Assembly (NCBI GenBank): GCA_963791445.1
Contig: CAWBSN010000026.1
Span: forward strand, 22,635 to 86,634
Source of the DNA: an uncultured Acidobacteriaceae bacterium
GTDB taxonomy: Bacteria > Acidobacteriota > Terriglobia > Terriglobales > Acidobacteriaceae
Length of the DNA: 64,000 bases
Direction of reading: 5' to 3'
The position numbers were made by a program, and so were the translations under genes. The notes under the pieces are model-generated. The model did not search any database, had not been told where the DNA came from, and saw only the letters and a program-made list of their open reading frames with translations. Below, piece after piece: positions 22,403 to 64,000 of the stretch (positions within the stretch are counted from its first letter, which is position 1; every line of letters begins with the position of its first letter).

Positions 22403-22429
22403 GTCACCCCGAGCAAAGCGGGGGATCTT
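22403..22429 (+). repeat. Short (hairpin-less) GTCAYCC-type repeat
   Basis: GTCACCCCGAGCAAAGCGGGGGATCTT. Compare 62286-62311. Confidence 0.6.
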
Positions 22430-22475
22430 CGTGTTTGCTCGCATCAACAACACAGGGTGCCACAAGCGGAAACCA

Positions 22476-22501
22476 GGATCCCTCGCTGCGCTCGGGATGA
22501 C
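22476..22501 (-). repeat. Short GTCATCC-type repeat, inverted orientation
   Basis: The reverse complement reads GTCATCCCGAGCGCAGCGAGGGATCC. It forms an inverted pair with 22403-22429. Confidence 0.6.
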
Positions 22502-22521
22502 AGCGTTTCACGGATCGCTGC

Positions 22522-22932
22522 CTACTTTCGCACGAAAGCTTCCATCACCTCAGGCGATGCGGCCAGGAGCCACGCGATCACCACCCGCGCCATGATCTGG
22601 ACGCCGTAAAACCAGAAGCGCCAGGTCAGATCCCTCGCTGCCGCAGAAACCGCCGGCACCGATCCCGCAATTCCGATGACCATGATGACAATCGCGCACC
22701 AGCGCGCCCAATTGCTCAGCCGATAAAGGCCCCAGCCCACCAGTGCCCAACCGGCGCCAACGGAGATGGCCGTCTGCGGCCCGGTCAGTTCTCGCCCGTA
22801 CGTCACGCCCGTTCCCAGCGTCCTTGAAAGTGTGCCAGGCGCTACCAATTCGATGATGCCGATCGTAGCAAGATATCCCGCGACCAGAAAAAACAGAGCC
22901 GCGATCACGGTGACACTGGCCGGGCGCTCCAT
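22522..22932 (-). CDS. Hypothetical integral membrane protein
   Basis: 136 aa with about 4 hydrophobic segments. No family recognised. Confidence 0.5.
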
Positions 22933-22996
22933 AGCGATGAGAGTACCGCAGTTTCGCCGAAGAAGTGTCAGTTAGATCTGTGGCAAACTACACTCC

Positions 22997-23836
22997 ATGC
23001 CCAGCCTCACTCTCGGCGACTTCGAACTCAGCATCTTCTCCGACGGCACTTACCCGCTCGACGGTGGCGCATTCTTCGGGGTCGTCCCCAAAGTGATGTG
23101 GTCGCGCAAAGTAAACGCTGACGAGAGGAATTACGTCCAGGCCGGCCTCAACTCGCTGCTCATCCGCACCGGCAAGCAAACGGTGCTGGTAGAAACCGGC
23201 ATGGGCAACAAGCTGTCAGAGCGCATGATCAAATTCTACGGCCAGCCCGCAAAGCTGCTCGCAAATCTCAGCGGTGCCGGGGTCGCTCCCGAAGATATCG
23301 ATATCGTCATCAATACCCACCTGCACTTCGACCACTGCGGCTGGAACACCGTCCGCGGCAAAGACGGCAAGATCGTCCCCACATTTCCGCGCGCAAAATA
23401 CTACGCGCCGGAAGGCGAATGGCAATATGCCCGCCGTCCCAGCGAGCGCGACGCCATCAGCTACATCCCCGAAAACTACGATCCGCTTGTCGAAAGCGGC
23501 CAGATGACGCTGCTCAAAGGCGGCGAAGAAATCGTCCCCGGCATCTCAGTGAAAACTTTCCCCGGCCACACCGCCCACATGCAAGCCGTAATCGTCGAAA
23601 GCGCAGGCCGCACCGCCTGCTACATCTCCGATCTCATCCCCACGACCGCACACATCGACCTGACCTGGGGAATGTCCTTCGACCTCTACCCGCTGCAGAC
23701 CATCGAGAGCAAGAAGCAGTACTACGCGAAAGCGATCCCCGAGAAATGGCTGACGGTCTTTACGCATGATGCGAAAGTCCCGTGGGCGTATGTGGAGAAA
23801 GATGAAACCGGGAAGATGGTAGCAAGGTCGGCCTAG
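22997..23836 (+). CDS. MBL-fold metallo-hydrolase
   Basis: INTHLHFDHCGW (HxHxDH) motif; 279 aa. Confidence 0.85.
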   Translation: MPSLTLGDFELSIFSDGTYPLDGGAFFGVVPKVMWSRKVNADERNYVQAGLNSLLIRTGKQTVLVETGMGNKLSERMIKFYGQPAKLLANLSGAGVAPEDIDIVINTHLHFDHCGWNTVRGKDGKIVPTFPRAKYYAPEGEWQYARRPSERDAISYIPENYDPLVESGQMTLLKGGEEIVPGISVKTFPGHTAHMQAVIVESAGRTACYISDLIPTTAHIDLTWGMSFDLYPLQTIESKKQYYAKAIPEKWLTVFTHDAKVPWAYVEKDETGKMVARSA

Positions 23837-24960
23837 ACCGTCTCGCGGATGAGAGCCTGCCCCGAGCCTGCCGAAGGGACGCTACATAGCCTCGCTTCGA
23901 AGAATTCCTCGACCCGCCCCAGAATCTCCACCGCACTCTTCGACTCGTAGATCGCCTTGCGAAGCGCCGCTCCGCCAGGCACGCCGTGCGTGAACCACGA
24001 AGCGAACTGCTTCATCTTGCCGACGGCGTCCGGCAGTTCTTCTTCAATCAGCATCTGGAAGTAGGTGCGGATCATCTGGTAACGATCGGCCTCGGAGGGC
24101 TCGTCGTAGGATTTGGAAGCTGCCCCCGCGTCAGCTTTTTCCATGCCCGCGCAATACTGCTGAATCTGCCGAAAGATCCACGGATTCGACGGCGCAGTCC
24201 GTCCAATCATCACCGCATCGCATCCAGTCTGCGCGACCATGGCACAGGCGTCCTCAGGCGTGCGGATGTCGCCATTGCCGATCACCGGAATCTTCACCGC
24301 GTCTTTGATCGCCGCAATCCACTCCCAGCGAGCGTTCCCGCTATAGCCTTGTTCCCGAGTCCGCGCATGCAACGCAACCGCCGCCAGTCCGCACGATTCC
24401 GCCATCCGCGCCAGCTCTACGCAAACGATCTCGTCGTCGCTCCATCCCGCGCGAAACTTCACCGTGAACGGAACCTTCACCGCGGCTCGCACCGCCTCAA
24501 AAATCCGGCCAATCGCCGGCAGATCGCGCAGCAATCCGGAGCCTCCGTTGCACTTCACGACTTTCTTCGCCGGACATCCCAGGTTCAAATCGACCAGGTC
24601 GAAGCCCAGGCCCTCGACCATGCGAGCCGCCTCCGCCATCACCAGCGGATTACTGCCAAAAAGCTGCGCCGAGATGGGATGCTCGTCTTCATAGAAATGG
24701 AGGTAGCGCTTGGCCTTCTCGTCCTTCTTGCGGAGCACGCCATCGGCCGAGGTGAACTCGGTCATGATCAGCCCACAGCCACCCAGGTTGCGTATGAACC
24801 GCCGGAACACCGTGTCAGTAACTCCGGCCATCGGCGCCAGCACAGTGGCGGGCGCAATGTTGATTTTGCCGATGGATACGCTGGCGGGGACCGGCTTCAG
24901 ACCCTCTACCTGGCGGACAACCGTGCCCGCCCCACCCGAGTTGTCCCAGGACTTGCGCAC
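23833..24960 (-). CDS. dusB: tRNA-dihydrouridine synthase (DusB-like)
   Basis: …LAPMAGVTDTVFR…, the TIM-barrel Dus core and a C-terminal helical domain. GTG start at 24960 is uncertain. The last codons run into a repeat module. Confidence 0.8.
   Translation of the reverse strand: MRKSWDNSGGAGTVVRQVEGLKPVPASVSIGKINIAPATVLAPMAGVTDTVFRRFIRNLGGCGLIMTEFTSADGVLRKKDEKAKRYLHFYEDEHPISAQLFGSNPLVMAEAARMVEGLGFDLVDLNLGCPAKKVVKCNGGSGLLRDLPAIGRIFEAVRAAVKVPFTVKFRAGWSDDEIVCVELARMAESCGLAAVALHARTREQGYSGNARWEWIAAIKDAVKIPVIGNGDIRTPEDACAMVAQTGCDAVMIGRTAPSNPWIFRQIQQYCAGMEKADAGAASKSYDEPSEADRYQMIRTYFQMLIEEELPDAVGKMKQFASWFTHGVPGGAALRKAIYESKSAVEILGRVEEFFEARLCSVPSAGSGQALIRETV
23853..23879 (+). repeat. GAGCCTGCCC-type 27-nt repeat module (variant), overlapping the dusB 3' end
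   Basis: GAGCCTGCCCCGAGCCTGCCGAAGGGA. Related to 33027, 37458 and 53226. Confidence 0.5.
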
Positions 24961-24995
24961 AGATCTATTCTACTTGCCCCTGTCTACTTGCCCCC

Positions 24996-25028
24996 GCAAA
25001 ACAAAGCCCTCGCCGATGGGCGAGGGCT
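24996..25028 (-). terminator. Intrinsic terminator of rpmE
   Basis: Perfect 10-bp stem AGCCCTCGCC-GATG-GGCGAGGGCT (25005-25028), followed on the minus strand by TTGTTTTG. Confidence 0.6.
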
Positions 25029-25076
25029 GAGTTTACAGGGTATCCGCGTTAATCCGAGCAAATCCGTCGCAAAGAC

Positions 25077-28347: not shown

Positions 28348-29424
28348 TCAGAACAACGAACTCTGCCGCCGGCTCGGCGTAATCCCAAAATGCTCGTAGG
28401 CCAGCTGCGTCGCCACGCGCCCGCGCGGAGTGCGGTTCAAAAACCCAATCTGCATCAGAAACGGCTCGTAAATCTCTTCAATCGCGTCCGGCTCCTCGGC
28501 CAGCACCGCCGCCAGCGTATTCACGCCCACCGGCCCGCCCTGATATTTCTCGATAATGGTCAGCAGCAAACGCCGGTCCACTTCGTCGAACCCATATTTA
28601 TCCACTTCCAGCATCTGCAGCGCCGCCTGCGCCGTAGGCAAATCGATTTTGCCCGCTCCGCGCACCTGCGCATAGTCGCGCACCCGCCGCAGCAGCCGGT
28701 TCGCAATGCGCGGCGTTCCCCGCGACCGGCTGGCAATCTCAATCGCCCCCGCGTCGTCAACCTGAACTCCCAGAATCTCCGCCGAACGCTCCACGATCAC
28801 GCGCAACTCTTCCGGAGTATAAAACTCCAGCCGCAGCACGATCCCAAATCGCGACCGCAGCGGCGCTGAAATCAATCCCGCCCGCGTAGTCGCGCCCACA
28901 AATGTAAACGGCTTCACTTCGAGAGTGTGCGTGCGCGCCGAAGGCCCCTGCCCGATAATAATGTCGAGCTTGTAATCTTCCAGCGCCGAATACAGCAGCT
29001 CTTCGAGCACCGGCTGCAGCCGGTGAATCTCATCGATGAACAGGACTTGCTTGTCCTGCATGTTGGTGATGATCGCCGTCAGGTCGCCTTTGATCTGCAG
29101 CAGCGGCGCCGCCGTAGGCTGAAAGTGCACTCCGAGTTCATTGGCAATAATGTTAGCCAGCGTAGTCTTGCCCAGCCCCGGAGGCCCATACAGCAGCACA
29201 TGGTCCATGGCTTCGCCGCGCGACCGCGCCGCCTCAATCGCCACCGCCAGATTTTCTTTTACCTTGGTCTGCCCGATAAACTCGCCCAGCCGTTGCGGCC
29301 GCAGCTTCAGCTCAAACGAAGAATCATCTTCCACGGGCGCGGCAGACACCAGCCGCTCAGGACTGTAATTCAGGTTGGGATTGTTTCTAGCAGTAGCCAC
29401 TCGCCGGATGTTACCACGAACCAT
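28348..29424 (-). CDS. ruvB: Holliday junction branch-migration ATPase RuvB
   Basis: …[12 protein letters not shown]…[14 protein letters not shown]…FIDEIHRL…. Confidence 0.95.
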
Positions 29425-29476
29425 GTGGGGACAGCCGCCTTCGGCTGTCCAGGCCGAAGCGCAGCGAGGCTTGCTC
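29422..29476 (+). repeat. CATGTGGGGACAGCCG-CCTT-CGGCTGTCC hairpin repeat
   Basis: Perfect 9-bp stem GGACAGCCG/CGGCTGTCC. Its CAT supplies the annotated ruvB ATG on the other strand. Confidence 0.7.
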
Positions 29477-30235: not shown

Positions 30236-30294
30236 GTCATCCTGAGCGAAGCATGAGCACCTGAAAGGCGGTCATGCGCAGTCGAAGGATCCCT
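30236..30294 (+). repeat. GTCATCC-type hairpin repeat
   Basis: GTCATCCTGAGCGAAG-CATGAGCACC-TGAAA-GGCGGTCATG-CGCAGTCGAAGGATCCCT. Confidence 0.8.
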
Positions 30295-32971: not shown

Positions 32972-33058
32972 GTCATCCTGAGCGGAGAGACGCGGTTCGC
33001 GAAGCGAAGCGCGTGTCGGAGTCGAAGAGCCTGCCCCGAGCGAAGCCGAGGGGATCCC
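32972..33058 (+). repeat. GTCATCC-type hairpin repeat with a GAGCCTGCCC module inserted in its 3' end
   Basis: GTCATCCTGAGCGGAG…GTCGAAG | AGCCTGCCCCGAGCGAAGCCGAGGG | GATCCC. Deleting the 25-nt insert restores GTCGAAGGATCCC. Confidence 0.75.
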
Positions 33059-33191
33059 TCGCATCTTTTCGGCATCCGCAGCTTCGTGGGGATCTTTCAT
33101 CATTGGCGTAGCAGTTTCCCCGCCAACTGCGCGCAGCCTCGTTCTTGCTTTCGTCAACCGCAAGTTGGTAAGCTTCAAACACCGAAGCACC

Positions 33192-37434: not shown

Positions 37435-37505
37435 CATGTAGGGACGGGCGCATTCGTGAGCCTGCCCTGAGTGAAGCCGAAGGGCCCAGCGAGCAAGCGA
37501 GCCAG
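37435..37505 (+). repeat. CATGTRGGGAC-type repeat carrying a nested GAGCCTGCCC module
   Basis: CATGTAGGGACGGGCGCATTCGT-GAGCCTGCCCTGAGTGAAGCCGAAGGG-CCCAGCGAGCAAGCGAGCCAG. The end modules match 56185 and 57047. Confidence 0.6.
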
Positions 37506-38965: not shown

Positions 38966-39010
38966 GTCATCCCGAAGCCCCGCGTTTTCTCGAGCGGGGC
39001 GAGGGATCTC
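38966..39010 (+). repeat. GTCATCC-type repeat variant
   Basis: GTCATCCCGAAG-CCCCGC-GTTTTCTCGA-GCGGGG-CGAGGGATCTC. Confidence 0.65.
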
Positions 39011-45403: not shown

Positions 45404-45461
45404 GTCATCCTGAGCGAAGCATGAGCGCCTGAAAGGCGGTCATGCGTAGTCGAAGGACCCC
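45404..45461 (+). repeat. GTCATCC-type hairpin repeat
   Basis: GTCATCCTGAGCGAAG-CATGAGCGCC-TGAAA-GGCGGTCATG-CGTAGTCGAAGGACCCC, 13 nt after the stop at 45391. Confidence 0.8.
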
Positions 45462-47947: not shown

Positions 47948-48296
47948 CGTACCCACCGCCGCCCCTACTGCTTCCACCGCTTCCACCGGCATATACTTTA
48001 TCTCCCCTGCCGCGTGCTACTTTTATTACTTCCCTTATATCAAATACAAAACCTATAAAACCAGCAGTAACAGTAGGCGCTTCGCAGAAGTGGAAAACTT
48101 TGAGAACTGACCTATTGTCACCACCTTGGGGAGCATCCCTTCGTGTGAGAAATCGGTCCCGAACCAGGCGGAGACCCTACAACAAGATTCCCACTTTTCT
48201 CATTACTCCCGACCCTTGCACAGCTTCCACATCTCATTCACAGCTCGGAAAAAGGAAACTGATCGATTCAGTGCAAAACTACAAAGAACTGCCGCT
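47948..48296. other. dnaA-dnaN intergenic region: candidate oriC part (AT-rich tract plus DnaA-box-like 9-mers)
   Basis: AT-rich tract at 48018-48060. TTTTCCACT (minus strand, 48089-48097), ATTCCCACT (48187-48195) and CTTCCACA (48224-48231) are 1-2 mismatches from TTATCCACA. Confidence 0.4.
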
Positions 48297-49679
48297 TTAT
48301 CCGCCCAATTGCTCGGTCAGCTTATTGAGCAACCTGTTTAAATCCTTGTCGTTCTTGCGAGCCTCTTCAATTTTCTCGACAGAGTGCAGCACGGTCGTGT
48401 GATGTTTCCCGCCAAACTGCCGCCCAATTTCCGGCAGCGAAGCCTCCGTCATATGTTTCGCCAGATACATGGCAATCTGCCGCGGATAAACAATCGCCCG
48501 CGAATTGTCTTTCGCTTTGATCTCGACCAGCCGCAGCCCAAACTGCTCGGCCACCATCTTCTGGATCGACTCAATCGTGACCTTACGCGCCTGCGAATCA
48601 ATGAAGTTCTTCAGCACCTGCTGCGCGTAAGGCAGAGTGATCTCCGCCCCAATCAGCGACGAATGCGCCACCAGCCGGATCAGCGCGCCTTCCAACTCGC
48701 GCACATTCGACCGGATATTCTGCGCAACGTACAGCGCCACATCCGTCGGCAGCGTCACTTTCTCCTGCTCCGCCTTCTTTTGCAGGATTGCTACCTTCGT
48801 TTCCAGATCCGGAGGCTGAATGTCGGCGATCAGTCCCCACTCAAAACGGCTGCGCAGCCGGTCCTCAATCTCCGCCAATTCCTTCGGCGATCGATCGCTC
48901 GCGATAACGATCTGCTTCATCGTGTCGTGCAGCGCGTTGAAGGTGTGGAAAAATTCTTCCTGCGTCCGCTCTTTGCCCGTCAGGAATTGAATGTCATCGA
49001 TCAGCAGCACGTCCACGCTGCGGAACTTGTCGCGGAACGACGTCATCTTGTCGTAGCGCAGCGAGTTGATCATGTCGTTGGTGAACTTCTCGCTCGAGAC
49101 GTAGCAGATCGCCGCCTGCGGCTGCCGCCGCTTCACTTCGTGTCCAATGGCCTGCATCAGATGCGTCTTGCCCATACCGACGCCGCCATACAGGAACAGT
49201 GGGTTGTAGGCTTTTGAAGGACGTTCCGCGACCGCCTGGCACGCGGCATGCGCGAATTGATTTCCGCTTCCGATCACGAATGCGTCAAACGTGTAGCGCG
49301 GGTTCAGTTGCGCCGCGCCATCCCAGTCGAACCGCGCCTGCGCCGGGGCCCCGCCGACCGGAACCGGACCCGCCGACAGTCCGCCATTGTGTCGCACCGT
49401 CGTCGCCGCCGGATCGTCCTCCGGCGTCACGAACTTCACGTCGTTGAACTCCAGCCCCAGGTTGTCGATCGCTTCCTGGATCAGGTCCGCGTATTTGTCG
49501 CCGGCGTGCCGGAACTCCGCCGTCGGCACCCGCACAAACAAAACCCCGCCGCTGGAGTGGCTGTAGCGCGTAGGTTTCAACCACGTGTCATAGGAGTGCC
49601 GGTTGATCTTCTTTTCCAGCGCATCCAGAATGCGCGTCCACGGATTGGGGGAAAGCGGTGGTGTGCTCTGAGCTGACAT
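48297..49679 (-). CDS. dnaA: Chromosomal replication initiator DnaA
   Basis: AAA+ core (LFLYGGVGMGKTHL, LLIDDIQFL) and C-terminal DNA-binding domain (…GGKHHTTVLHSVEKI…). Confidence 0.97.
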   Translation of the reverse strand: MSAQSTPPLSPNPWTRILDALEKKINRHSYDTWLKPTRYSHSSGGVLFVRVPTAEFRHAGDKYADLIQEAIDNLGLEFNDVKFVTPEDDPAATTVRHNGGLSAGPVPVGGAPAQARFDWDGAAQLNPRYTFDAFVIGSGNQFAHAACQAVAERPSKAYNPLFLYGGVGMGKTHLMQAIGHEVKRRQPQAAICYVSSEKFTNDMINSLRYDKMTSFRDKFRSVDVLLIDDIQFLTGKERTQEEFFHTFNALHDTMKQIVIASDRSPKELAEIEDRLRSRFEWGLIADIQPPDLETKVAILQKKAEQEKVTLPTDVALYVAQNIRSNVRELEGALIRLVAHSSLIGAEITLPYAQQVLKNFIDSQARKVTIESIQKMVAEQFGLRLVEIKAKDNSRAIVYPRQIAMYLAKHMTEASLPEIGRQFGGKHHTTVLHSVEKIEEARKNDKDLNRLLNKLTEQLGG

Positions 49680-50192
49680 AATTTATGAAATACCCGCCGC
49701 GGCGTCCCGGCGGCTGGCTGAGGGCGCCTGTCTAAAACTGCTGTTTACCTGCTCGCCGATGGAACTCTTAGTGTACTGCGGAATGCGCCACTTGTGTCGT
49801 GCGCGGTTGCCATTTGTGAAAGAGAATTTCAAACCCGACAGTGCGGCATAGTAGCACAAAAATTTTTTGTCGTGACGGAAATCTTCGCGCACAAATTCTT
49901 CTCGAACACGATTCGGAACCCCAAGCCCCGCGCCTGTCAAGTGTCAAGGATGTAACTGCAACGGTCACGGTGCAAACGCGCCAGACTTTTTCTTTCCACG
50001 GTGGAACTAACCAAAAGACTCTTCTTCTACTCTTCTACAGCAATCGCACACTACCAACCAGCAACCGAAACCGGAGACCTAAGACCCAGGATCTGAAGCC
50101 TGAAGTCTCGCCCTTTGCCCTCATCCCTCCCAGTCATTTATACTTCTTGTTTGCCATAACACTGTCGACGGAATCAGGAGCAGCTATCTTTC
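49680..50192. other. rpmH-dnaA intergenic region: dnaA promoter and second candidate oriC part
   Basis: Convergent box pair TTTCCACG/GTGGAA (49993-50006), A5T6 tract (49856-49870) and tandem TGTCAAG x2 (49935-49948). Confidence 0.4.
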
Positions 50193-50348
50193 ATGCCCAA
50201 GCGTACATTCCAACCCAACCGGCGCAAGCGAAGCAAGAAGCATGGTTTTCGCACGCGCATGAAGACCCAGGGCGGCAAAAAGGTGATTTCCCGCCGCCGC
50301 GCCAAGGGACGGAAGCGGGTCTCCGTAAAACCCGGCTTCCGCGAGTAG
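50193..50348 (+). CDS. rpmH: 50S ribosomal protein L34
   Basis: [51 protein letters not shown]. Below the ORF-track size cutoff; preceded by AGGAG. Confidence 0.95.
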
Positions 50349-50452
50349 CTTTTCTGGTGCCGCTCACTTCCACAGTCGAGACCCTCAGCCGCCCGCTGCA
50401 TCACGCGGGCATGCTGGCTAGCGCCACGCTGAGAACTCGGCCGGACTTCGCC

Positions 50453-50854
50453 ATGCAGCCAAAGCCAACAGCCCGATTTCCCCGCAGCGCGCGCCTTCTG
50501 CGCCATGCGGATTTCGAGCGCGTCTACAAACAAGGACGCCGCCACTTTTCCGCGTCCATCACCGTTTTTTATTGGCCTCGCCCAGAAGCAGAAACGCCGG
50601 TCGCAGGCTTGCGCGTGGGATTCACGGTAGGCCGCGCCCTCGGCGGTGCCGTCCAGCGCAACCGCATGAAGCGCCGTTTGCGTGAAGCAGTTCGCATGAC
50701 GCGTCTAGTCACAGGGATTGCGGCCGACGTTGTCATTAATCCGAAAAAGTCATTGCTGACTACCGACTTCGCCGCTCTGCAAAACGAAGTGAGCCGAGCC
50801 TTCGCCGTAATCGAGCAAAAGCTCTCAGGGAATCAGCAGCCGCGAGAGAAATGA
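50453..50854 (+). CDS. rnpA: Ribonuclease P protein component
   Basis: …RLLRHADFERVYKQGRR…VGFTVGRALGGAVQRNRMKRRLREA… An alternative ATG is at 50411. Confidence 0.85.
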   Translation: MQPKPTARFPRSARLLRHADFERVYKQGRRHFSASITVFYWPRPEAETPVAGLRVGFTVGRALGGAVQRNRMKRRLREAVRMTRLVTGIAADVVINPKKSLLTTDFAALQNEVSRAFAVIEQKLSGNQQPREK

Positions 50855-50892
50855 ATTTCTGGTGAAGAACAAGAAGCGAATCGTCGCATTCA

Positions 50893-50978
50893 AGCCCCGA
50901 AGGGGCGGCATGTGAAAGCCCGGCGCGGAAGCGCCGGGTAAAGTGGAGAGATTGGAACAAGTCCCGTAGGGACGACAC
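50893..50978 (+). repeat. Three-hairpin element, copy 1 (between rnpA and yidD)
   Basis: GCCCC-GAA-GGGGC, GCCCGGCGC-GGAA-GCGCCGGGT and GTCCC-GTA-GGGAC, with conserved linkers. Confidence 0.75.
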
Positions 50979-51020
50979 TGTGTTTTCGCCCGCTCCCATA
51001 CGGCGCTATGGATTTCAAAC

Positions 51021-51269
51021 GTGAGCAACATCGCCAAATTCGTCACGCTGCAACTGCTGCGGGCCTACAAGTGGGCCATCTCGCCCATGCTGCCCCCGGC
51101 CTGCCGCTACGTGCCGACCTGCTCCGAATATGCCATGGAGGCCATCGAACGCTACGGCGCCTTGCGTGGCGGATGGATGGCCTTCAACCGCGTCCTCCGC
51201 TGCCATCCCCTAGCCCGCTCCGGCTACGATCCGGTGGTAAAGCAAGCAACCGGCTGCGGAAAACTGTGA
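51021..51269 (+). CDS. yidD: Membrane protein insertion efficiency factor YidD
   Basis: …[31 protein letters not shown]…. Confidence 0.9.
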
Positions 51270-51289
51270 TCCAGAATGCTGCACCGCAC

Positions 51290-51378
51290 AGCCCCTTCAA
51301 GGGGCGGCATTCATTAGCCCCGGACGTAAGTCCGGGGTGCAAGAGGAAAGTGGGAACGAGTCCCGTAAGGGACGGCAC
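51290..51378 (+). repeat. Three-hairpin element, copy 2 (between yidD and yidC)
   Basis: GCCCC-TTCAA-GGGGC, GCCCCGGAC-GTAA-GTCCGGGGT and GTCCC-GTAA-GGGAC. The second stem differs from copy 1 by compensating changes. Confidence 0.75.
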
Positions 51379-51409
51379 CCGCTCTGACGCGATTAATTAA
51401 AGGAAGACT

Positions 51410-53197
51410 TTGGCTGAATATCAAAATCCTCAACAAGAGCCCGGCTCCGAGCGCCGGCTTCTCATCGTCGTTGTTCTGACGTTCGTCGTCCTCGTCGTCT
51501 CGCAAGCGTTGCTCAAGAAGTACGCGCCAGCCCCGACTGAGCCAGCGCAAAATAAAACCGCACAAACGCAGCCGGTGATCACACCGCCTCCGTCTGCTCC
51601 CGCGGCGATAATCCCCAAGCTTCCATCCTCCACGGTCACGAAACAGGCGTCCACCGAGACTGAAACCGTCATCGAGAACGATCTGTACAAAATCACCTTT
51701 ACCAACCGCGGCGCTCAGGTCAAGTCCTGGATCCTCAAAAAGTTCGACAACGACGCCCAGAACGGGCCGCTCGAATTAGTCAATGCCGCCGCCGCACAAA
51801 AATTCGGTTACCCGCTCTCGCTATGGACCTACGACGAAACTCTGCGCAATCGCCTCAGCTCCGCGCTCTACGTAGCTTCAAACGAAGGCAATCTCACGGC
51901 CCCAGCCACGATCACCTTCGAATACGCCGACCAGGATCTCGTCGTCCGCAAGACCTTCCATTTCGACCACACCTACGTCCTCAACGTCGAAACCTCAGTC
52001 CTCTACAAAGGCGCTGAAATCTTTGCCCCGCCCGCCTGGCCCGCCGGATTCGGTGACCAGGTCACGCCCGCGTCCTACGGCGCCTCCGGCATCGACTATC
52101 ACAACGACGCCTCCACCGAACGCAGCGGCTACATCTTCTTTCCGACTTACGTGACGCGCCTTACCGTCAAGGCCATCAGCGGCGGCAACACCATCAAAGG
52201 TCCATTCGAGTGGGCCGGCACCGGCGACCAATACTTCACCGCTATCTTTATTCCCAACGATCCCGCCTCAGCTGCCATGGTCACGCTCCACAACTCCATG
52301 GAGATTCCGCAGAAGCCGGGCCTCAACCCTATCGGCGCCGGCTCCAAAGACACCGCCAACGTAGATCTCCTCGGCGCGGCCGTCGGCGACCTCCGCGGCC
52401 CAACCACCCAGCGCATGTATGTCGGCCCCAAAGAGATCGCCGTCCTCGATGCCGTTCCGGTACCTACCATCAAGAACGACAGCCCCGATCTTCGCGGTAT
52501 CGTCAACTACGGCTGGTGGGGTATCCTCGCGCGCCCGCTCTTCCTCTGGCTCAAGTGGACCTACAACCATATCGTCCACAACTGGGGATGGGCCATCGTC
52601 ATTCAAACTTTCATCATCACCATCCTGCTGCTCCCGCTGCGCATCACCCAGATGAAGTCGATGCTGAAGATGCAGCGCATCCAACCCCAGATCAAAAACA
52701 TTCAGGAGAAATACAAGAAGTACAGCCTGCGCGATCCCCGTAAAGCCGCCATGAACGAAGAGATCAGCGGACTCTATAAGAAGGAAGGCGTAAATCCCGC
52801 CGGCGGCTGTCTGCCTGTTATCATTCAGTTCCCGTTCCTGATCGCTTACTACAGAATGTTGGGCGTAGCTCTCGAACTCCGCCACGCCCACTGGCTCTGG
52901 ATCACGGACTTGTCCGCGTCGGATTGGGTCCTGCCGCTCTTGATGGTAGTCAGCATGGTCGTAATGCAGCGCATGACCCCGCAAGCCGGCATGGATCCCG
53001 CCCAGCAGAAAATGATGACGATCATGATGCCATTGTTTATGGGCTTCATCTTCTTTAAGCTGGCCGCAGGCTTGAATCTCTATTACACCGAGAGCAACCT
53101 GATTTCGATCGCGCAACAAGCAGTAATGAACCGCACCAAGCTAGGCCGCGAAATGCGCGAAATGATGGAAAAACGCGCCCGCAAGAAAGAGAAGTAA
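51410..53197 (+). CDS. yidC: Membrane protein insertase YidC
   Basis: TTG start follows AAGGAAG. 595 aa with a large periplasmic domain and a conserved C-terminal 5-TM core (…GWAIVIQTFIITILLLPL…MMPLFMGFIFFKLAAGLNLYY…). Confidence 0.95.
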   Translation: MAEYQNPQQEPGSERRLLIVVVLTFVVLVVSQALLKKYAPAPTEPAQNKTAQTQPVITPPPSAPAAIIPKLPSSTVTKQASTETETVIENDLYKITFTNRGAQVKSWILKKFDNDAQNGPLELVNAAAAQKFGYPLSLWTYDETLRNRLSSALYVASNEGNLTAPATITFEYADQDLVVRKTFHFDHTYVLNVETSVLYKGAEIFAPPAWPAGFGDQVTPASYGASGIDYHNDASTERSGYIFFPTYVTRLTVKAISGGNTIKGPFEWAGTGDQYFTAIFIPNDPASAAMVTLHNSMEIPQKPGLNPIGAGSKDTANVDLLGAAVGDLRGPTTQRMYVGPKEIAVLDAVPVPTIKNDSPDLRGIVNYGWWGILARPLFLWLKWTYNHIVHNWGWAIVIQTFIITILLLPLRITQMKSMLKMQRIQPQIKNIQEKYKKYSLRDPRKAAMNEEISGLYKKEGVNPAGGCLPVIIQFPFLIAYYRMLGVALELRHAHWLWITDLSASDWVLPLLMVVSMVVMQRMTPQAGMDPAQQKMMTIMMPLFMGFIFFKLAAGLNLYYTESNLISIAQQAVMNRTKLGREMREMMEKRARKKEK

Positions 53198-53201
53198 AGA
53201 T

Positions 53202-53265
53202 TTACCCTGTGAACCCCTGTGCCCGGAGCCTGCCCTGAGCGAAGCCGAAGGGTGTTTAAGGTTTT
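53202..53265 (+). repeat. TTACCCTGTG-type module interrupted by a GAGCCTGCCC module
   Basis: TTACCCTGTGAACCCCTGTGCCC | GGAGCCTGCCCTGAGCGAAGCCGAAGGG | TGTTTAAGG. Uninterrupted copies are at 58605 and 61767. Confidence 0.65.
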
Positions 53266-53297
53266 AAAGGTTTAGTTGTAGAAGCGAGAGCCGCCCT

Positions 53298-53822
53298 ATG
53301 GATAAACTAGCCGCCGCCAACCGCATCAACGAATTCCTCCAATCCGTAGTCACCAACGGAGGACTTCACCTAAAGTACCGCATAGTAGTCGACCCTCCAG
53401 CGCCCACCGACTGGGAGAAGCCAGAAATCTTCGTGGATTTCTCCGGCCCAGATTCCACTCTGCTCCTCGATCGCGGCGCCGAACTTCTCCGCGCCCTCGA
53501 ACTCCTGGCCTTCGAAATCCTCCATCTTCCGTCCGCCGAACACGAAAAGATTTCTTTCGACTGCAAGAACCAGCGTTCCATCCGCCTACAGGAACTTCGC
53601 ATGGCCGCGACCGTCGCCGCCGAAAAAGTTCGCCAGACCGGAACCCCGTTTCATTTCGCTCCCATGTCCTCGCGCGAGCGCCGCATCGTCCACCTCGCCC
53701 TGCGCGATCAAACCGACCTCCGCACCGAAAGCGACGGCGAAGGCTTCAACCGCTGCGTAGTCCTCTACCCCGCAGACTACAAACCCGCCACCAGCAAGCC
53801 ATCCCGCCGCACCCTCCCGTAG
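53298..53822 (+). CDS. jag: Jag/KhpB-like KH + R3H RNA-binding protein
   Basis: The position after yidC and the R3H region (…FHFAPMSSRERRIVHLAL…) fit. Confidence 0.8.
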   Translation: MDKLAAANRINEFLQSVVTNGGLHLKYRIVVDPPAPTDWEKPEIFVDFSGPDSTLLLDRGAELLRALELLAFEILHLPSAEHEKISFDCKNQRSIRLQELRMAATVAAEKVRQTGTPFHFAPMSSRERRIVHLALRDQTDLRTESDGEGFNRCVVLYPADYKPATSKPSRRTLP

Positions 53823-53839: not shown

Positions 53840-53902
53840 GTCATCCTGAGCGGAGACACGCGGCCCGCGGAGCGGACCGCGTGTCGGAGTCGAAGGATCC
53901 CT
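53840..53902 (+). repeat. GTCATCC-type hairpin repeat
   Basis: GTCATCCTGAGCGGA-GACACGCGGCCCGC-GGA-GCGGACCGCGTGTC-GGAGTCGAAGGATCCCT, 18 nt after the jag stop. Confidence 0.8.
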
Positions 53903-54017
53903 ACCAGCTTGCACCAAGGCCGCCTCCGCAAGGCATTTCCACCGCGGGCTCTGTCTTGCGTCTGACCCGCTCCCACAGGCAAAATAGATCGCACCACCGA
54001 CTCCACCCAGAGGCCCC

Positions 54018-56159
54018 ATGCATCTAGCTCGCCACGCGACAATTCTGTTTTCATTACTCTCAGTCATGACCCTATTCCCCGCCGCGCAATCCGCCCCGCT
54101 CACTTACCCTCAAGCCCGCCGCAGCGACCAGGTCGATGACTACCATGGCACCAAGGTCGCCGACCCTTACCGCTGGCTCGAGGACACCGACTCCGCCGAA
54201 ACTCACGCCTGGGTCGAAGCCGAAAACAAACTAACCTTCGGCTACCTCGATCAGCTCCCCTACCGTCAGGCCATCCGCGACCGCCTCACCAAACTTTGGA
54301 ACTACGAGCGCTTCACCACTCCCAGCCAGTTTGGCGGACGCTACTTCTACATGCACAACACCGGACTTCAGCAGCAGAACGTCCTCTTCGTCGCCGAATC
54401 CCTCAACGCCGAGCCCCGCGTCCTGCTCGATCCCAACACGCTTTCTCCCGATGGCACCGTCGCGCTGGCCGGTGACGCCATCTCCGACGACGGCAAACTC
54501 ATGGCCTACGCCATCGCCACTTCCGGTTCCGACTGGACCGAGTGGCACGTCCGCGACATCGACACCGGAAAAGATCTCCCCGACGATCTCAAGTGGGTGA
54601 AGTTCTCCGGCGCATCCTGGACCAAAGACAACCAGGGTTTCTTTTACAGCCGCTACGACGAACCCACCGGCGCCACCATGCGCGACACCAATTATTTTCA
54701 AAAGCTCTACTATCACCGCCTGGGCACCGCGCAATCCACAGACAAACTGATCTACGAACGTCCCGATAACAAAGAAATGTTGTTCGGAGGCAGCGTCACC
54801 GATGACGGCCACTATCTGATCATCCACGTCTCCGAAGGCACGTCGCCCAAGAACCGCCTCTATTACAAAGACCTCACCCAACCGGATTCCCAGGTAGTAA
54901 AGCTCCTCGACGACTTCGACGCGCAATACATATTCATCGATAACGACGGTCCCGTCTTCTGGTTCCAGACCGATCTCGACGCTCCCCGCGGACGCCTGAT
55001 CGCCATCGACACCCGCCATCCCGAACGCATCAACTGGAAAACCGTAGTTCCCCAGAGCGTCGACAAGCTGGAGTTCTCAAACGTCGTGAACAATTCATTT
55101 CTTCTGGGATATCTGAAAGATGCCCGCACCGAAGTCCGCGTCTACGACTTGAGCGGAACGTTCCTCCACAACGTCGATCTGCCCGGCATCGGCACCGCCG
55201 CAGGTTTCGGCGGCAAACGCAAAGACAAAGAAACTTTCTACGCCTTCACCAGCTTCATCTCTCCCGCCACCGTCTATCGCTACGATCTCGAAGCCGCCAA
55301 GAGCGCCATCTTCCGCCAGCCCAAAGGTCGATTTCGATTCCAGCCTCTACGAAACCAAACAAGTTTTCTACGCCAGCAAAGACGGCACTCGCGTCCCCAT
55401 GTTCCTGACCTACAAGAAAGGATTAAAGCTCGACGGACAAAACCCCGTCCTGCTCTATGCCTACGGCGGATTCGACATCTCTCTCACTCCAGCCTTCTCC
55501 GTCCCGAATATAGTCTGGCTGGAAATGGGAGGAATCTACGCTCAGCCCAACCTGCGCGGCGGCGGTGAATACGGCGAAGAGTGGCATCAGGCGGGCATGA
55601 AACTGAAAAAGCAAAACGTATTCGACGACTTCATCGCCGCCGCCGAATGGCTCATCGCCAACAAGTACACGTCAACGCCAAAACTGGCAATCCGCGGCGG
55701 CAGCAACGGAGGCCTGCTCATCGGCGCCTGCGTAACTCAGCGCCCCGATCTCTTCGGCGCAACCTTACCCGAAGTCGGCGTCATGGACATGCTGCGCTTC
55801 CAGAAATTCACCATAGGCTGGGCCTGGACCAGCGACTACGGCTCCTCCGACGATCGCCGAGGAATTCAAAGCCCTCTACGCCTACTCCCCGCTGCACAAC
55901 CTGAAGCCAGGAACAAAATATCCGCCCACGTTAATCGCAACTTCCGACCACGATGACCGCGTAGTCCCCGGCCACAGCTTCAAATTCGCCGCGACCATGC
56001 AAGCCGATCAAGCCGGCCCAGCCCCGATCTTGATTCGCATCGAGACGAAAGCCGGCCACGGCGCCGGCAAATCCATTACAAAGCTGATCGACGAAACCGC
56101 CGACACCTGGTGCATTCCTGGCCCACAACCTGGACATGAAGGTAGCCCTGCAACAGTAG
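54018..56159 (+). CDS. Prolyl oligopeptidase (S9A) family serine peptidase, three frame breaks
   Basis: Signal peptide. …[17 protein letters not shown]…, catalytic GGSNGGLL, …SDHDDRV…H. Breaks are at the AAA run 55323-55325, about 55855-55860, and about 56111. The reconstructed end is …[21 protein letters not shown] with TAG at 56157-56159. Confidence 0.85.
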
Positions 56160-56184
56160 CGCCGCCGCGCCGGCGACCAGAATG

Positions 56185-56335
56185 CTCATGTGGGGACAGC
56201 CGCCTTCGGCTGTCCAGCGAGCGAAGCGAGCCAGTCTCCACCTCACCCATCCCGTTGTCATCCTGAGCGAAGTGGCTGGTCCGCGAAAGCGAACCAGCCA
56301 CGCAGTCGAAGGATCCCTAGCAGCTCAAATGCACC
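56185..56335 (+). repeat. ~150-bp composite repeat (GGACAGCCG hairpin module + GTCATCC hairpin module), copy 1
   Basis: About 95% identical to 57047-57196. Contains GGACAGCCG-CCTT-CGGCTGTCC and GTCATCCTGAGCGAAG-GTGGCTGGTCCGC-GAAA-GCGAACCAGCCAC-GCAGTCGAAGGATCCCT. Confidence 0.85.
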
Positions 56336-56354
56336 GGGGCCCCGCTCCAGATTT

Positions 56355-56394
56355 GTCATCCTGAGGCCCGCGCTTTTCGCGGGCCGAAGGACCT
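56355..56394 (+). repeat. GTCATCC-type repeat, compact variant
   Basis: GTCATCCTGAG-GCCCGCG-CTTTT-CGCGGGC-CGAAGGACCT. Confidence 0.7.
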
Positions 56395-57046: not shown

Positions 57047-57196
57047 CTCATGTGGGGACAGCCGCCTTCGGCTGTCCAGCGAGCGAAGCGAGCCAGCCTC
57101 CACCTCACCCATCCGGTTGTCATCCTGAGCGAAGTGGCTGGTTCGCGAAGCGAACCAGCCACGCAGTCGAAGGATCCCTAGCCGTTCAAATGCGCC
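57047..57196 (+). repeat. ~150-bp composite repeat, copy 2
   Basis: Same order of modules as 56185-56335. Here the stem GTGGCTGGTTCGC-GAA-GCGAACCAGCCAC is perfect. Confidence 0.85.
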
Positions 57197-59792: not shown

Positions 59793-59852
59793 GTCATCCT
59801 GAGCGGAGGAAGCGCTTAAGCGAAGCGCAAGCGCTTACGGAGAGAATGACCC
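59793..59852 (+). repeat. GTCATCC-type repeat with a degenerate 3' module
   Basis: GTCATCCTGAGCGGAGGAAGCGCTTAAGCGAAGCGCAAGCGCTTACGGAGAGAATGACCC. Confidence 0.6.
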
Positions 59853-61629: not shown

Positions 61630-61643
61630 GCCTCCATCGCTTT

Positions 61644-61701
61644 GTCATCCTGAGCGAAGCATGATCGTCCGAAGGACGGTCATGCGCAGTCGAAGGACCC
61701 C
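61644..61701 (+). repeat. GTCATCC-type hairpin repeat
   Basis: GTCATCCTGAGCGAAG-CATGATCGTCC-GAA-GGACGGTCATG-CGCAGTCGAAGGACCCC, 15 nt after the stop at 61629. Confidence 0.8.
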
Positions 61702-61917: not shown

Positions 61918-62301
61918 ATGTTCACCCCGCACCCCAATCTAGCGGACGACGTCAACCACGCCATCATCCAGTCCGAAATCGAAGGCGGAGTTTTTCTCCA
62001 CGACCTCCCACCCTCCACAGTTTTGGAAATCCAAACCATGCACCACTGCTACACCGCCGTTCTGCTCGGAGGCAGCGACGCCCTCATCTCCGGCCATCCC
62101 GAATTCTGTCCCAGCCCGGTTCACGTAGCCATAGCCGGTTCCACCTGGGGAGGCTCCATGCTAAAGCTCCAATACGTAGGCCGCGGCATGCACCTCGAAT
62201 TTCACCACCCCGAATACGACACCCCCATAGTCACCAGTCCCATCCAGGAAATCCGCGACTCCCAACCCATCCTCATGGAAGAATTGTCATCCCGAGCGTA
62301 G
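61918..62301 (+). CDS. Hypothetical protein
   Basis: 127 aa. The last codons and the stop lie inside repeat 62286-62311. No family recognised. Confidence 0.5.
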   Translation: MFTPHPNLADDVNHAIIQSEIEGGVFLHDLPPSTVLEIQTMHHCYTAVLLGGSDALISGHPEFCPSPVHVAIAGSTWGGSMLKLQYVGRGMHLEFHHPEYDTPIVTSPIQEIRDSQPILMEELSSRA

Positions 62302-62311
62302 CGAGGGATCT
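62286..62311 (+). repeat. Short (hairpin-less) GTCATCC-type repeat
   Basis: GTCATCCCGAGCGTAGCGAGGGATCT. Confidence 0.65.
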
Positions 62312-62375
62312 TGGTGTCTGCCCGCGCCATCCTGAACTCGCCAAGCTATTAGTGCCGGCCAAACTCTCCAGCTCT

Positions 62376-62439
62376 GTCATCCTGAGCGGAGCGAATGCTT
62401 GGGCGCTCAGCGCAAGCATTCGTGCAGTCGAAGGACCCC
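62376..62439 (+). repeat. GTCATCC-type hairpin repeat
   Basis: GTCATCCTGAGCGGAG-CGAATGCTTG-GGCGCTCAGCGC-AAGCATTCG-TGCAGTCGAAGGACCCC. Confidence 0.8.
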
Positions 62440-62576: not shown

Positions 62577-62931
62577 ATGACCATCACCATCCGCGAAGTC
62601 AGCCACGTCACCATCGTCGACATCGTCGGACGCATCACTCTCGGCGACGAGACCGGACTAGCTCCGCGACACCATCCGCCAGCTCCTCGTCGATGGCAAG
62701 AAAAAAATCATCCTCAATCTAGCCCAGGTCGATTACCTCGATTCCTCCGGCGTAGGCGAACTGGTCAGCGGCTACACCGCCGTCCGCAGCGCCGGCGGCG
62801 AACTGAAACTCCTAAGCCTCACCAAAAAAGTCCACGACATCGTCCAGGTCACCAAGCTCTACACCGTCTTCGACATCAAAGACGACGAATTCACCGCCAT
62901 AAAATCCTTCGACTACTTCTTCGCCAAATAG
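62577..62931 (+). CDS. STAS-domain anti-sigma-factor antagonist, frame break near 62656-62663
   Basis: MTITIREVSHVTIVDIVGRITLGDETG, then LRDTIRQLLVDGKKKIILNLAQVDYLDSSGVGELVSGYTAVRSAGGELKLLSLTKKVHDIVQVTKLYTVFDI… in the next frame, ending TAG 62929-62931. Confidence 0.8.
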
Positions 62932-62946
62932 GATCTTCGAAGCATT

Positions 62947-63010
62947 GTCATCCTGAGCGGAACGAGGGCTTGTGCGCTGAGCGCAAGCCCTTGTGCAGTC
63001 GAAGGACCCC
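62947..63010 (+). repeat. GTCATCC-type hairpin repeat
   Basis: GTCATCCTGAGCGGAAC-GAGGGCTTGTGCGC-TGA-GCGCAAGCCCTTG-TGCAGTCGAAGGACCCC, 16 nt after the stop at 62931. Confidence 0.8.
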
Positions 63011-63134
63011 TGCCATCTCATACACGCATCGCTCTCGAGGGCGTTCTCCTCAACTGCCAGCATCGTGCTGAACCCGCGTCCCAGGTGGATGCCGAGATAT
63101 ACTCCCAATAACCAACACAGAAACGAGGCGCTCC

Positions 63135-63470
63135 ATGCACAAACTCACACTAGCCGTTCTCTTGTTCCTCCCAACCTTCGCCCACGCATCCGACCCCAAA
63201 CCTGCCGACTACACCATCACCATCCACGTCAGCGCCACGCGCACCGCCTCTGTCGGCATCGGCGTGCAAGATCTGGACGTCATCATCGACGCCAAGAAAT
63301 ATGAATTGATGTCGGATCGCGTCATAGGCCAACTACTGGCGCTCGGCGACTACAAAGCGAAGCTCGTCGAAGACAGCCACAAAACCACCTACGACTCCTA
63401 CCAGGTCTACGAATTCCTGTTCCCTGACGGCAAAACCAGAAAGTTCCAAGTCGTAGGCCAAATCGAATAA
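63135..63470 (+). CDS. Small secreted hypothetical protein
   Basis: Signal peptide MHKLTLAVLLFLPTFAHA; 111 aa. No family recognised. Confidence 0.5.
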   Translation: MHKLTLAVLLFLPTFAHASDPKPADYTITIHVSATRTASVGIGVQDLDVIIDAKKYELMSDRVIGQLLALGDYKAKLVEDSHKTTYDSYQVYEFLFPDGKTRKFQVVGQIE

Positions 63471-63496
63471 TCAAATTGATCAGAAGGCCAGGTGAC

Positions 63497-63595
63497 GGCA
63501 CGGCGTGAAGCCGTGCCGCAGCAGCGTGAACCCGCTGCACAACCGCGGAAGAGCGGCGCTTTCAGCGCCGCGTAAGGGTCGCTTATCGATGCGAC
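63497..63595 (+). repeat. Block of four consecutive short GC hairpins between convergent genes
   Basis: GGCACGGC-GTGAA-GCCGTGCC, GCAGCG-TGAACC-CGCTGC, GCGGCGC-TTTCA-GCGCCGC and GTCGC-TTATCGAT-GCGAC. Confidence 0.65.
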
Positions 63596-63622
63596 AAGCA
63601 AATCTACTCCGGCTTGCGTCAA

Positions 63623-63883
63623 CTAGGCACTGACACTCCCATACTTCCGCACTTCCCCATCCACGGACACCGCCACATACTTATGCATCTCCACATCCCG
63701 AAACTGCACCACCTGATGTTTCTCCCGCGCCAGCTTCCCCCAATTGCTAGGCTTCTCAGGATTCTGCTCAATCGCCTCCAACACCCGCCCATTCAGCCGA
63801 AACTGAACCATCCGCAACCGCCCACGCCCCACACGCTCAACCGGAATCTTCTGTCCCTCCAGCAAAACAAAGTCGCCATTCAT
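63623..63883 (-). CDS. Hypothetical small protein
   Basis: The ATG at 63883 (MNGDFVLLEGQKIPVERV…) is preferred over TTG 63907. No family recognised. Confidence 0.5.
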   Translation of the reverse strand: MNGDFVLLEGQKIPVERVGRGRLRMVQFRLNGRVLEAIEQNPEKPSNWGKLAREKHQVVQFRDVEMHKYVAVSVDGEVRKYGSVSA

Positions 63884-63972
63884 CAACTGCGCCGCCACCG
63901 ACCCCAAGTTTTCTCAACCTCAGTCAACGTCATAAGCCAATCTCTCCAAGAATTCGCAAGCTCTCCAACCTT

Positions 63973-64000
63973 GTCATCCTGAGCGGAGCATGACGTCCGC
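63973..64000 (+). repeat. GTCATCC-type hairpin repeat, truncated by the window edge
   Basis: GTCATCCTGAGCGGAGCATGACGTCCGC…. Confidence 0.6.

Follow-up and report, generated by a model that had tools for sequence, protein, structure and literature searches.

To which system does a repeat belong whose two ends are invariant and whose inner hairpin differs in nearly every copy, and does it act as RNA or as DNA? The question is raised by a 64,000-nt stretch of DNA from an uncultured Acidobacteriaceae bacterium (contig CAWBSN010000026.1), called here the window, meaning the whole stretch, in which 16 copies of such a repeat were under study; positions are those of the window unless a locus is named. 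We propose, with a probability of about 0.8, that the copies are a divergent branch of the NTS-like hairpins known as Ssn-related motifs (SRM), forming a large family in Terriglobia (Acidobacteriota) that is tied to a GIY-YIG homolog of the nuclease SsnA of 92-95 aa. The SRM/SsnA system is already known. What is new here is a proposed recognition split around a co-varying hairpin with a putative clamp role, a set of forms like those of insertion sequences (IS) and miniature inverted-repeat transposable elements (MITE), and a strand polarity.

The Ssn nucleases became known in 2025, as the first enzymes that cleave at specific sites and in single-stranded DNA (ssDNA) only (Chenal et al., Nat Commun 2025, PMC11893778). 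SRM flank ssnA, the gene of a 94-aa single-domain GIY-YIG nuclease, and the motif of Neisseria is the NTS, CGTCATTCCCGCGMAVGCGGGAATCYRG, with the frame CGTCAT-TCCCGCG-MAV-GCGGGAAT-CYRG (PMC11893778). SsnA binds the folded motif as ssDNA only and on one strand only, cleaves a few nucleotides upstream and does not act on RNA; cutting depends on the nucleotides just 5' of the palindrome and binding on the C just 3' of it, and an NTS split across two oligonucleotides is still cut (PMC11893778).

The repeat family, its fold and the neighbouring nuclease gene

In the window, the 5' module GTCATCCYGAGCGRAG had 14 matches at up to two mismatches vs 0.29 expected, and the 3' module had 8 vs 0.39 expected. 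A covariance model (R1), built from 39 copies of other genomes and applied to the window without filters, retrieved 15 of the listed copies, the weakest being that of 22403 (E=0.13), and placed the copy at 22476-22501 on the minus strand. This enrichment and this recovery bear out the 16 positions given in the initial annotation, which had also claimed that the first 22 kb are empty; indeed the search with R1 gave no convincing copy in 1-22 kb, so that the density goes from 0 there to about 1 per kb in 53-64 kb. A scan of related genomes, with one genome per species, produced at least 120 loci, nearly all of them from Terriglobia/Acidobacteriaceae metagenome-assembled genomes (MAGs), plus Granulicella isolates. 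The locus counts that follow rest on the 120 listed loci, together with the window, where a relaxed pattern detected 300 copies vs 3 on the reversed sequence.

Predicted folds of the long copies, for RNA and for DNA alike, comprised a basal stem of 4-5 bp (ATCCY/RGGAT), a conserved internal loop that opens with a tandem G.A/A.G step and has GAGCGRAG opposite to CGSAGTCGA, and a long variable hairpin. The short copies folded as ATCCC-GA-GCGNAGC-GA-GGGAT, with a predicted DNA folding energy of -3.5 kcal/mol vs about -19 kcal/mol for the long forms. Short and intermediate forms measured 25-45 nt and the dominant long forms 57-63 nt, with a maximum of 72 nt. Reading and aligning the copies gave the same architecture that had been described at the outset, end modules around a hairpin core with short and intermediate forms. 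The sharing of both end modules stood overall and failed in two copies, 59793, whose 3' module is degenerate, and 32972, whose 3' module carries a nested mini-hairpin.

The 190 full copies of the listed loci and the window contained 188 distinct inner sequences between invariant end modules. In 39 copies of equal length (38 loci and the window), 92.3% of the cells were paired vs 73.7% in shuffles, and two-sided changes were found in 118 cells vs 27.5 in shuffles. The observed covariation was reached by none of 500 shuffles and had no rival among slid registers, and 11 of the 12 inner-stem pairs co-varied. The claim that both arms of the stem change together, for which a covariation test had been suggested, has in this way obtained statistical support. 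It was also possible to see co-variation in the basal stem, which reads ATGCT/AGCAT in L013 and ACCCT/AGGG in L080. The commonest apical loop was GAA (43 of 196 copies). In 39 copies from other genomes, G1, T2 and C3 were invariant, and A4, T5 and the C58 that follows the palindrome were conserved in at least 90%, with which the copies of the window agree; the oriented motif, GTC(W)Y plus a C after the palindrome, is present in the copies of other genomes and of the window. GTC and this C, the best-conserved positions, coincide with those on which cutting and binding depend in the NTS (PMC11893778).

A subfamily with a conserved and imperfectly paired inner segment of 43 nt (CGCCTCGCAGATCTATCG..TAACAGAGGGTTTATGGCGCG) was observed in L003, L006, L009, L058, L086, L087, L097, L106 and L108. 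Its flanks are conserved and recur in at least nine MAGs; the subfamily may represent orthologs of a single locus, or else an element of larger size.

The GIY-YIG genes were searched by tblastn with the open reading frame (ORF) of L021 against the 120 listed loci. Five were found, of which three are intact, encode 92-95 aa and have Pfam PF01541 as the only domain, while the copies of L021 and L086 are frameshifted or broken. The element flanked all five on both sides, four of them within 92 nt and the broken copy of L086 at 128 and 248 nt; as background, 7.4% of the locus bases lie that near a copy. A scan of metagenomes by protein alignment yielded 80 loci, of which the 62 with sufficient flank were counted. 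The element was located at 200 nt or less from the ssnA homolog on both sides in 50 of them, on one side in 12 and on neither side in none, and the commonest arrangement was element(+)-ssnA(+)-element(-), with 31 of the 50.

The protein of L028 had a single match in N. gonorrhoeae by tblastn (E=1e-16), within the threshold used in the SsnA paper for homology (tblastn E<1e-10). Aligned with the 94-aa SsnA of N. gonorrhoeae it was 48% identical (E=2e-26), with the GIY, YIG and REKQLK residues conserved, and the 94-aa ORF of N. gonorrhoeae lies amid 7 NTS copies in 1.6 kb. No NCBIfam family matched the acidobacterial GIY-YIG proteins, and the nearest solved structures were those of UPF0213 proteins (E=9e-5).

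Orientation, doublets and turnover between strains

Taking the gene directions from codon-based gene calls, the single copies in co-directional intergenic regions of the listed loci were 21 in sense and 22 in antisense; for convergent vs divergent regions the count was 20 vs 5, in favour of the former. The GTCAT strand of the single copies was instead found on the locally C-rich strand, in a proportion of 66:1 at |GC skew|>=0.1 and of 82:8 at |GC skew|>=0.05, or 40:3 counted per locus (p=3e-9). This bias was present in short, intermediate and long forms and did not change when the elements were masked from the skew calculation. The GC skew had no relation with the gene strand (r=-0.02) and was anticorrelated with the AT skew (r=-0.39), as expected for an asymmetry associated with replication. 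Considering that the strand of the element is independent of gene direction and locked to strand composition, the elements act at the level of DNA and not as an RNA of the 3' untranslated region (3'-UTR).

The same relation explains what was seen in the window. Its GC skew is negative from about 16 kb onward, which accounts for the location of 15 of the 16 copies on the + strand, a count that we confirmed. Many copies had been said to begin 13-30 nt after a + strand stop codon; this is correct for 32972, 45404, 53840, 59793 and 61644 and incorrect for 30236 and 38966, and the apparent rule results from most of the nearby genes being on the + strand. No T-tract follows the copies, as the initial annotation had indicated. 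In N. gonorrhoeae, whose chromosome was sampled in six stretches of 50 kb, there were just 12 NTS copies, 4 of them single, too few to judge how general the bias is. A reading of CCCTACCC as similar to the FtsK orienting polar sequences (KOPS) was discarded, the motif being present in just about 10% of the copies.

Inverted pairs hold 127 of the 300 copies. They are nearly always tail-to-tail, with the 3' modules inward, and the spacer, of about 27-34 nt in the related genomes, has complementary ends. Doublets were commoner in low-skew loci, and the only one in the window is formed by the short copies 22403 and 22476. Taking into account that the tail-to-tail geometry equals that of element(+)-ssnA(+)-element(-), the doublets look like deletion derivatives of MITE type. 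Tandem arrays also exist: at L091 4536-7666, 19 copies on one strand were counted in 8 kb, and they include arrays in which two short variants alternate, the period being about 165 nt. A module RGGCRTTYCYC follows about one third of the single copies at a constant distance of 28-34 nt, which is also the distance bridged by the spacer of the doublets. In the window the module is AAGGCATTTCC at about 53931-53941, after 53840, with equivalents after 30236, 45404, 57119, 61644, 62376 and 62947.

Three contigs from metagenomes (L121-L123) show synteny with the window, to which they are 93-95% identical. L121 lacks the stretch 56165-56348 of the window, where a 145-nt unit with the copy 56257 is located, and in the orthologs of both 61644 and 62947 a 25-nt mini-hairpin is inserted precisely between GTCGAA(G) and GGACCCC. 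The same nested insert was also seen in the copy 32972 of the window and in further genomes. The copies 53840, 56355 and 57119, meanwhile, are unchanged in the relative. The comparison of intergenic regions in close relatives that had been advised hence revealed copies gained, lost and nested between strains 93-95% identical. The identity of orthologous copies was 0.905 vs 0.918 for other intergenic DNA, and since the two values are similar there is no blanket purifying selection on whole copies.

The mini-hairpin is a family of its own, GAGCCTGCCCYGAGCGAAGCCGARGG, found at 37458-37484, 53226-53252 and 33027-33053 of the window and at about 13364 and 14826 of L121. It has the core CCYGAGCGAAG..CGARGG in common with the main element, without GTCAT, and occurs either solitary or as a precise, strain-polymorphic insert in the 3' module of the main element, always directly after CGAAG. 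Another separate family, CATGTGGGGACAGCCGCCTTCGGCTGTCCAGCGAGCGAAGCGAGCC, is located at 29422-29452, 56187-56287, 57049-57149 and 11196-11230, and it is twice fused upstream of the main element, giving the duplicated unit of about 145 nt.

The copies of the window and their surroundings

The doublet of the window consists of the short copy GTCACCCCGAGCAAAGCGGGGGATC, without inner hairpin (22403..22428, + strand), which is its first half, and of the short copy GTCATCCCGAGCGCAGCGAGGGATC (22476..22501, - strand, given as minus-strand sequence; 29.9 bits), with a 49-nt spacer. The clpB ORF (19688-22609) is open through both of them and acquires an apparent C-terminal extension of about 70 aa, so the repeat can mislead gene callers; it is possible that the repeats replaced or overran the clpB stop codon.

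All the remaining copies are on the + strand. The long copy 30236..30293, with the inner hairpin CATGAGCACC-TGAAA-GGCGGTCATG, has a minus-strand gene on either side and is antisense to fusA; it shares its subfamily with the long copies 45404..45461, in whose L122 ortholog both arms have paired changes, and 61644..61701, situated 14 nt 3' of an OmpA-family gene and carrying the nested 25-nt insert in the 3' module of its L121 ortholog. In the long copy 32972..33062 the nested mini-hairpin (about 33027-33053) splits the 3' module between GTCGAAG and GATCCC. The intermediate copy 38966..39009, GTCATCCCGAA-GCCCCGC...GCGGGGC-GAGGGATC, is in a divergent region and scored 16.3 bits. The long copy 53840..53901 begins 17 nt 3' of the stop codon of jag (R3H) and its L121 ortholog is 100% identical. 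The long copy 56257..56317 is within the duplicated unit of about 145 nt (56185-56329, matching 57047-57190), and close to it is the intermediate copy 56355..56394, GTCATCCTGA-GGCCCGCG-CTTTT-CGCGGGCC-GAAGGACC, with an identical ortholog in the relative. The top score with the family model, 85.1 bits, corresponded to the long copy 57119..57178, whose hairpin apex is TTC-GCGAAGC-GAA. The long copy with the degenerate 3' module is 59793..59852, and its L121 ortholog is fully remodelled, with 63% identity. A short copy, GTCATCCCGAGCGTAGCGAGGGATC, occupies 62286..62311, followed by the long copy 62376..62439, with the inner hairpin CGAATGCTTG..CAAGCATTCG, and by its long paralog 62947..63010, which shows compensatory changes in the arms and has the nested 25-nt insert in the L121 ortholog. 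The last copy, 63973..64000, consists of the 5' module and the start of the hairpin, being cut by the end of the window.

The genes of the window are ordinary chromosomal ones (clpB, fusA, dnaN, dnaA, rnpA, yidC, jag, prolyl oligopeptidase, DinB and OmpA-family), and a Pfam search with the ORFs of repeat-dense loci likewise gave ordinary genes only. The prolyl oligopeptidase gene (54018-56160) is split into the overlapping ORFs 54018-55568 and 55399-55956 and is intact in L121 (711 aa); the split reflects either pseudogenisation by frameshift or a mistake in the sequencing. Between rnpA, yidD and yidC, two Acido-Lenti-1 RNAs were detected above the Rfam gathering score, at 50893-50938 (-; 55.1 bits) and 51290-51337 (-; 48.6 bits), by which the window is placed in Acidobacteriota. 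In the related genomes, a Y1_Tnp/RAYT gene within L001 5300-6281 is flanked by GTCCCGGAGGGAC plus GCCCAGCGCT..AGCGCTGGG, and another within L009 2560-3050 by CCCACATCTCGATTTTGAGATGTGGG. As these Y1 genes are flanked by other repeat families, several independent hairpin-repeat systems coexist in Terriglobia genomes.

Proposed mechanism, rival explanations and known systems

By homology with the enzymes already characterised, the acidobacterial nuclease would bind only the folded single-stranded element, on the GTCAT strand only, and would cleave a few nucleotides upstream. The part recognised would comprise the short basal helix ATCCY/RGGAT, the tandem G.A step, the purine-rich internal loop, the upstream GTC and the C after the palindrome, that is, the putative recognition modules (T)GTCATCCYGAGCGRAG and CGSAGTCGAAGGAYCCC(TA). 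The inner hairpin of 25-35 nt may be a clamp that holds the weak basal helix together in ssDNA, whose sequence could drift freely while it remains paired. This role is suggested by the variety of the inner sequences between invariant ends, by their strong covariation and by the difference in folding energy between short and long forms, and the cutting of a split NTS (PMC11893778) is consistent with a recognition that needs just two halves held together. The family comes as repeat-ssnA-repeat units, as doublets that are tail-to-tail and gene-less and look like MITE-type derivatives, and as single copies. In the latter, the putatively cleavable strand coincides with the C- and A-rich one, presumably the template of the leading strand. 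Such a polarity could be due to selection against cutting of the exposed lagging-strand template or to incorporation via the nascent lagging strand. Since GIY-YIG enzymes are not known to form covalent transposition intermediates, a copying by break and repair seems the more likely route by which the elements, if mobile, would spread.

A more far-reaching reading can be advanced only tentatively, and we lean somewhat against it. It holds that the orientation of the single copies shows Ssn-type nucleases acting on their own chromosome at the forks, that repeat-ssnA-repeat units and their derivatives are an active IS/MITE-like system driven by a GIY-YIG nuclease and not by a transposase, and that recognition is split into fixed ends and a freely evolving clamp. 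Copies would then persist just at those sites where the template of the leading strand is the one that can be cut, or would enter via the nascent lagging strand. If true, this would be the first in vivo clue to the role of Ssn outside Neisseria.

Several observations weigh against the assignment to the SsnA system or against this extension of it. The published SRM pattern, HGTCWYN(0-2)YYVSBRHN(0-5)WNVSBRGN(0-2)RNCYNB, which does detect the NTS copies of Neisseria, fits none of the 300 copies, none in the window and none of the 62 ssnA flanks, and the long forms exceed the 20-50 nt stated for SRM, into which the short and intermediate forms fit. No ssnA gene was found by tblastn in the 64-kb window, so the link with ssnA rests, for this genome, on its relatives. 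Cleavage limited to ssDNA has been demonstrated for the enzymes of Neisseria and Wolbachia alone (PMC11893778), and the activity of the acidobacterial one would follow by analogy. Regarding which strand folds, the balance of G.T vs A.C mismatches under symmetric scoring (45 vs 30, p=0.11) gave no clear answer, and by nearest-neighbour DNA folding both strands were equal. In a doublet, each template receives one of the two cleavable strands, an arrangement that strict self-avoidance fails to explain. Finally, dnaN and dnaA (-) and rnpA-yidD-yidC-jag (+), at 46832-53822, diverge from about 49.7-50.1 kb as in the classical neighbourhood of an origin, and no switch of GC skew or of element orientation occurs in this region. 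The equivalence of skew with replication direction consequently stays an assumption, supported by the anticorrelation with AT skew and by the fact that the window has no cluster of DnaA boxes; oriC probably lies elsewhere, or else the skew has another cause.

Among the other explanations, it was considered that the copies could be a family of repetitive extragenic palindromes (REP/REPIN) mobilised in trans by an HUH Y1 transposase, either a REP-associated one (RAYT) or an IS200-type TnpA, with an orientation derived from ssDNA transposition at the lagging-strand template. The initial annotation had pointed to a REP/BIME-like or MITE-like system, and its description stands in that the copies are extragenic, palindromic, multi-copy and strain-polymorphic and form inverted doublets, here in high copy and with complementary spacer ends. 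Their depletion from divergent regions, a strand bias like that of IS200/IS605 elements (PMC6006769), the NTAG foot of the complementary strand and the presence of Y1_Tnp genes in the Terriglobia genomes sampled are also in line with it. The RAYT-type part does not stand. The search for RAYT/TnpA genes that had been recommended returned two Y1_Tnp genes in about 0.9 Mb sampled (L001 5592-6080; L009 2601-2852, truncated), both flanked by repeats other than the main element, and the gene consistently flanked by it is ssnA-like. The manual REP table of Quentin et al. 2018 does not list this element, and the GTAG foot is not conserved: on the complementary strand it reads NTAGGG, and the positions after GGAYCC are C 0.94, T 0.69 and A 0.61, followed by C 0.35/T 0.34/G 0.23, so that GTAG is in the minority. 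Moreover, the strand that an SsnA-type enzyme would cut is the C-rich one, opposite to the IS608 paradigm. We regard this explanation as improbable. Quite improbable too is a structural DNA element maintained by the host and oriented by replication or by the chromosome, such as a protein-binding or priming site, which ssnA would use for landing. The 66:1 bias equals the strength of known polar chromosome motifs, some copies are 100% conserved between strains 93-95% identical, mini-hairpins with the core GCGNAGC have a very high stability as DNA (PMC13037366), and about one third of the single copies have the extra module, at the constant distance of +28 to +34 nt. Against these facts, the identity of the orthologs is not above that of other intergenic DNA (0.905 vs 0.918), some copies are remodelled, copy number and arrangement differ between close strains, and the distribution is very uneven, from none in 1-22 kb to about 1 per kb in 53-64 kb.

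A structured RNA, in the form of a 3'-UTR stabiliser, terminator or small RNA, would account for the strong covariation, for the stable predicted RNA folds and for the several copies of the window that begin 12-28 nt after a + strand stop codon. The 3'-UTR RNA had been one of the readings offered initially and it has to be given up: in the 120 listed loci the orientation has no relation with transcription and is locked to strand composition, the related nuclease is inactive on RNA (PMC11893778), 30236 is antisense to fusA, no U-tract is found downstream, no Rfam family matched, in 53-64 kb even at E<=10, and the inverted doublets and the copies flanking ssnA are in both orientations. An RNA is, in sum, very unlikely. 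Sites of integron attC type in a cassette array are hardly credible. They are similar in architecture, with a paired box at the base, a spacer that does not pair and a terminal hairpin that varies, and in 53-64 kb the copies are on one strand after short ORFs, but the genes are housekeeping ones (yidC, jag, prolyl oligopeptidase, OmpA-family, fusA and clpB), which contradicts this identity, the boxes RYYYAAC/GTTRRRY were absent on inspection, no integrase was seen, and the copies are scattered over the chromosomes of many genomes.

Under the assignment to the SsnA system, the published SRM pattern overlooks a whole and very abundant branch, previously uncounted, in soil Acidobacteriota, and the family accounts for a very common "mystery repeat" of Terriglobia genomes and MAGs. 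Recognition would tolerate, and perhaps need, a long arbitrary hairpin between its conserved halves, which could be useful for the design of split or programmable ssDNA substrates. The near-perfect polarity of single copies with strand composition is a testable hint that the nuclease may meet chromosomal ssDNA during replication.

By comparison with known systems, no characterised RNA family corresponded to the elements: the Rfam search recommended at the outset gave no match at the gathering score in the whole window or at E<=10 in 53-64 kb, including Acido-1 and Acido-Lenti-1, and a literature search with the literal repeat sequence returned nothing relevant. The short form and many apices contain GCGNAGC (GCGAAGC, GCGTAGC), like the mini-hairpin d(GCGNAGC), which differs in being a physical motif and not a genetic element; the GNA apex is found in just about one fourth of the long copies. 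REP, BIME and REPIN-RAYT systems resemble the family in their extragenic palindromes, inverted doublets, compensatory stem variation and repeats flanking the gene of a small enzyme that acts on ssDNA (PMC3116915, PMC3333891, PMC3733652), but here the enzyme is GIY-YIG and not HUH-Y1, the GTAG foot is not conserved and the Y1 genes adjoin other repeats. The class 3 TnpA-Y1 hairpins of Solibacter, Planctomycetes and Legionella (CnGAGCCGCGACCGTNAGGGAGCGG; Quentin et al. 2018) have a similar stem, tandem GA, 2-bp stem and GNNA/GNA loop, as well as a CnGAG 5' stretch and a high copy number in an acidobacterium; they differ in sequence and enzyme and do not have the variable hairpin extension. The palindromic core ATCCC...GGGAT recalls the dRS3 of Neisseria (ATTCCC-N8-GGGAAT), about half of whose copies are NTS (PMC11893778), although dRS3 is defined by the palindrome alone, whereas the present element is most conserved in its asymmetric flanks.

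It had been stated that no described family fits, which is outdated, as both the frame and the associated gene agree with the NTS/SRM of 2025, whose census relies on one degenerate pattern (PMC11893778). With respect to SRM, the element has a tandem G.A step in the stem, most of its copies carry a co-varying hairpin extension of 25-35 nt that brings the total to 57-72 nt, and tail-to-tail doublets and a strong bias of strand composition are present; the main text of the SRM paper contains neither Acidobacteria nor a replication-strand bias (PMC11893778). The likeness is seen in the oriented hairpin, with GTCAT 5' of the palindrome and a C directly after it, in the hundreds of intergenic copies, in the arrangement repeat-ssnA-repeat and in the single-domain nuclease of about 94 aa, which shares 48% identity with that of Neisseria. 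The short form, TGTCATCCCGAGCGNAGCGAGGGATCYTG, can be read as TGTCAT-CCCGAGCG-NAG-CGAGGGAT-CYTG, which is the same frame as that of the NTS of Neisseria.

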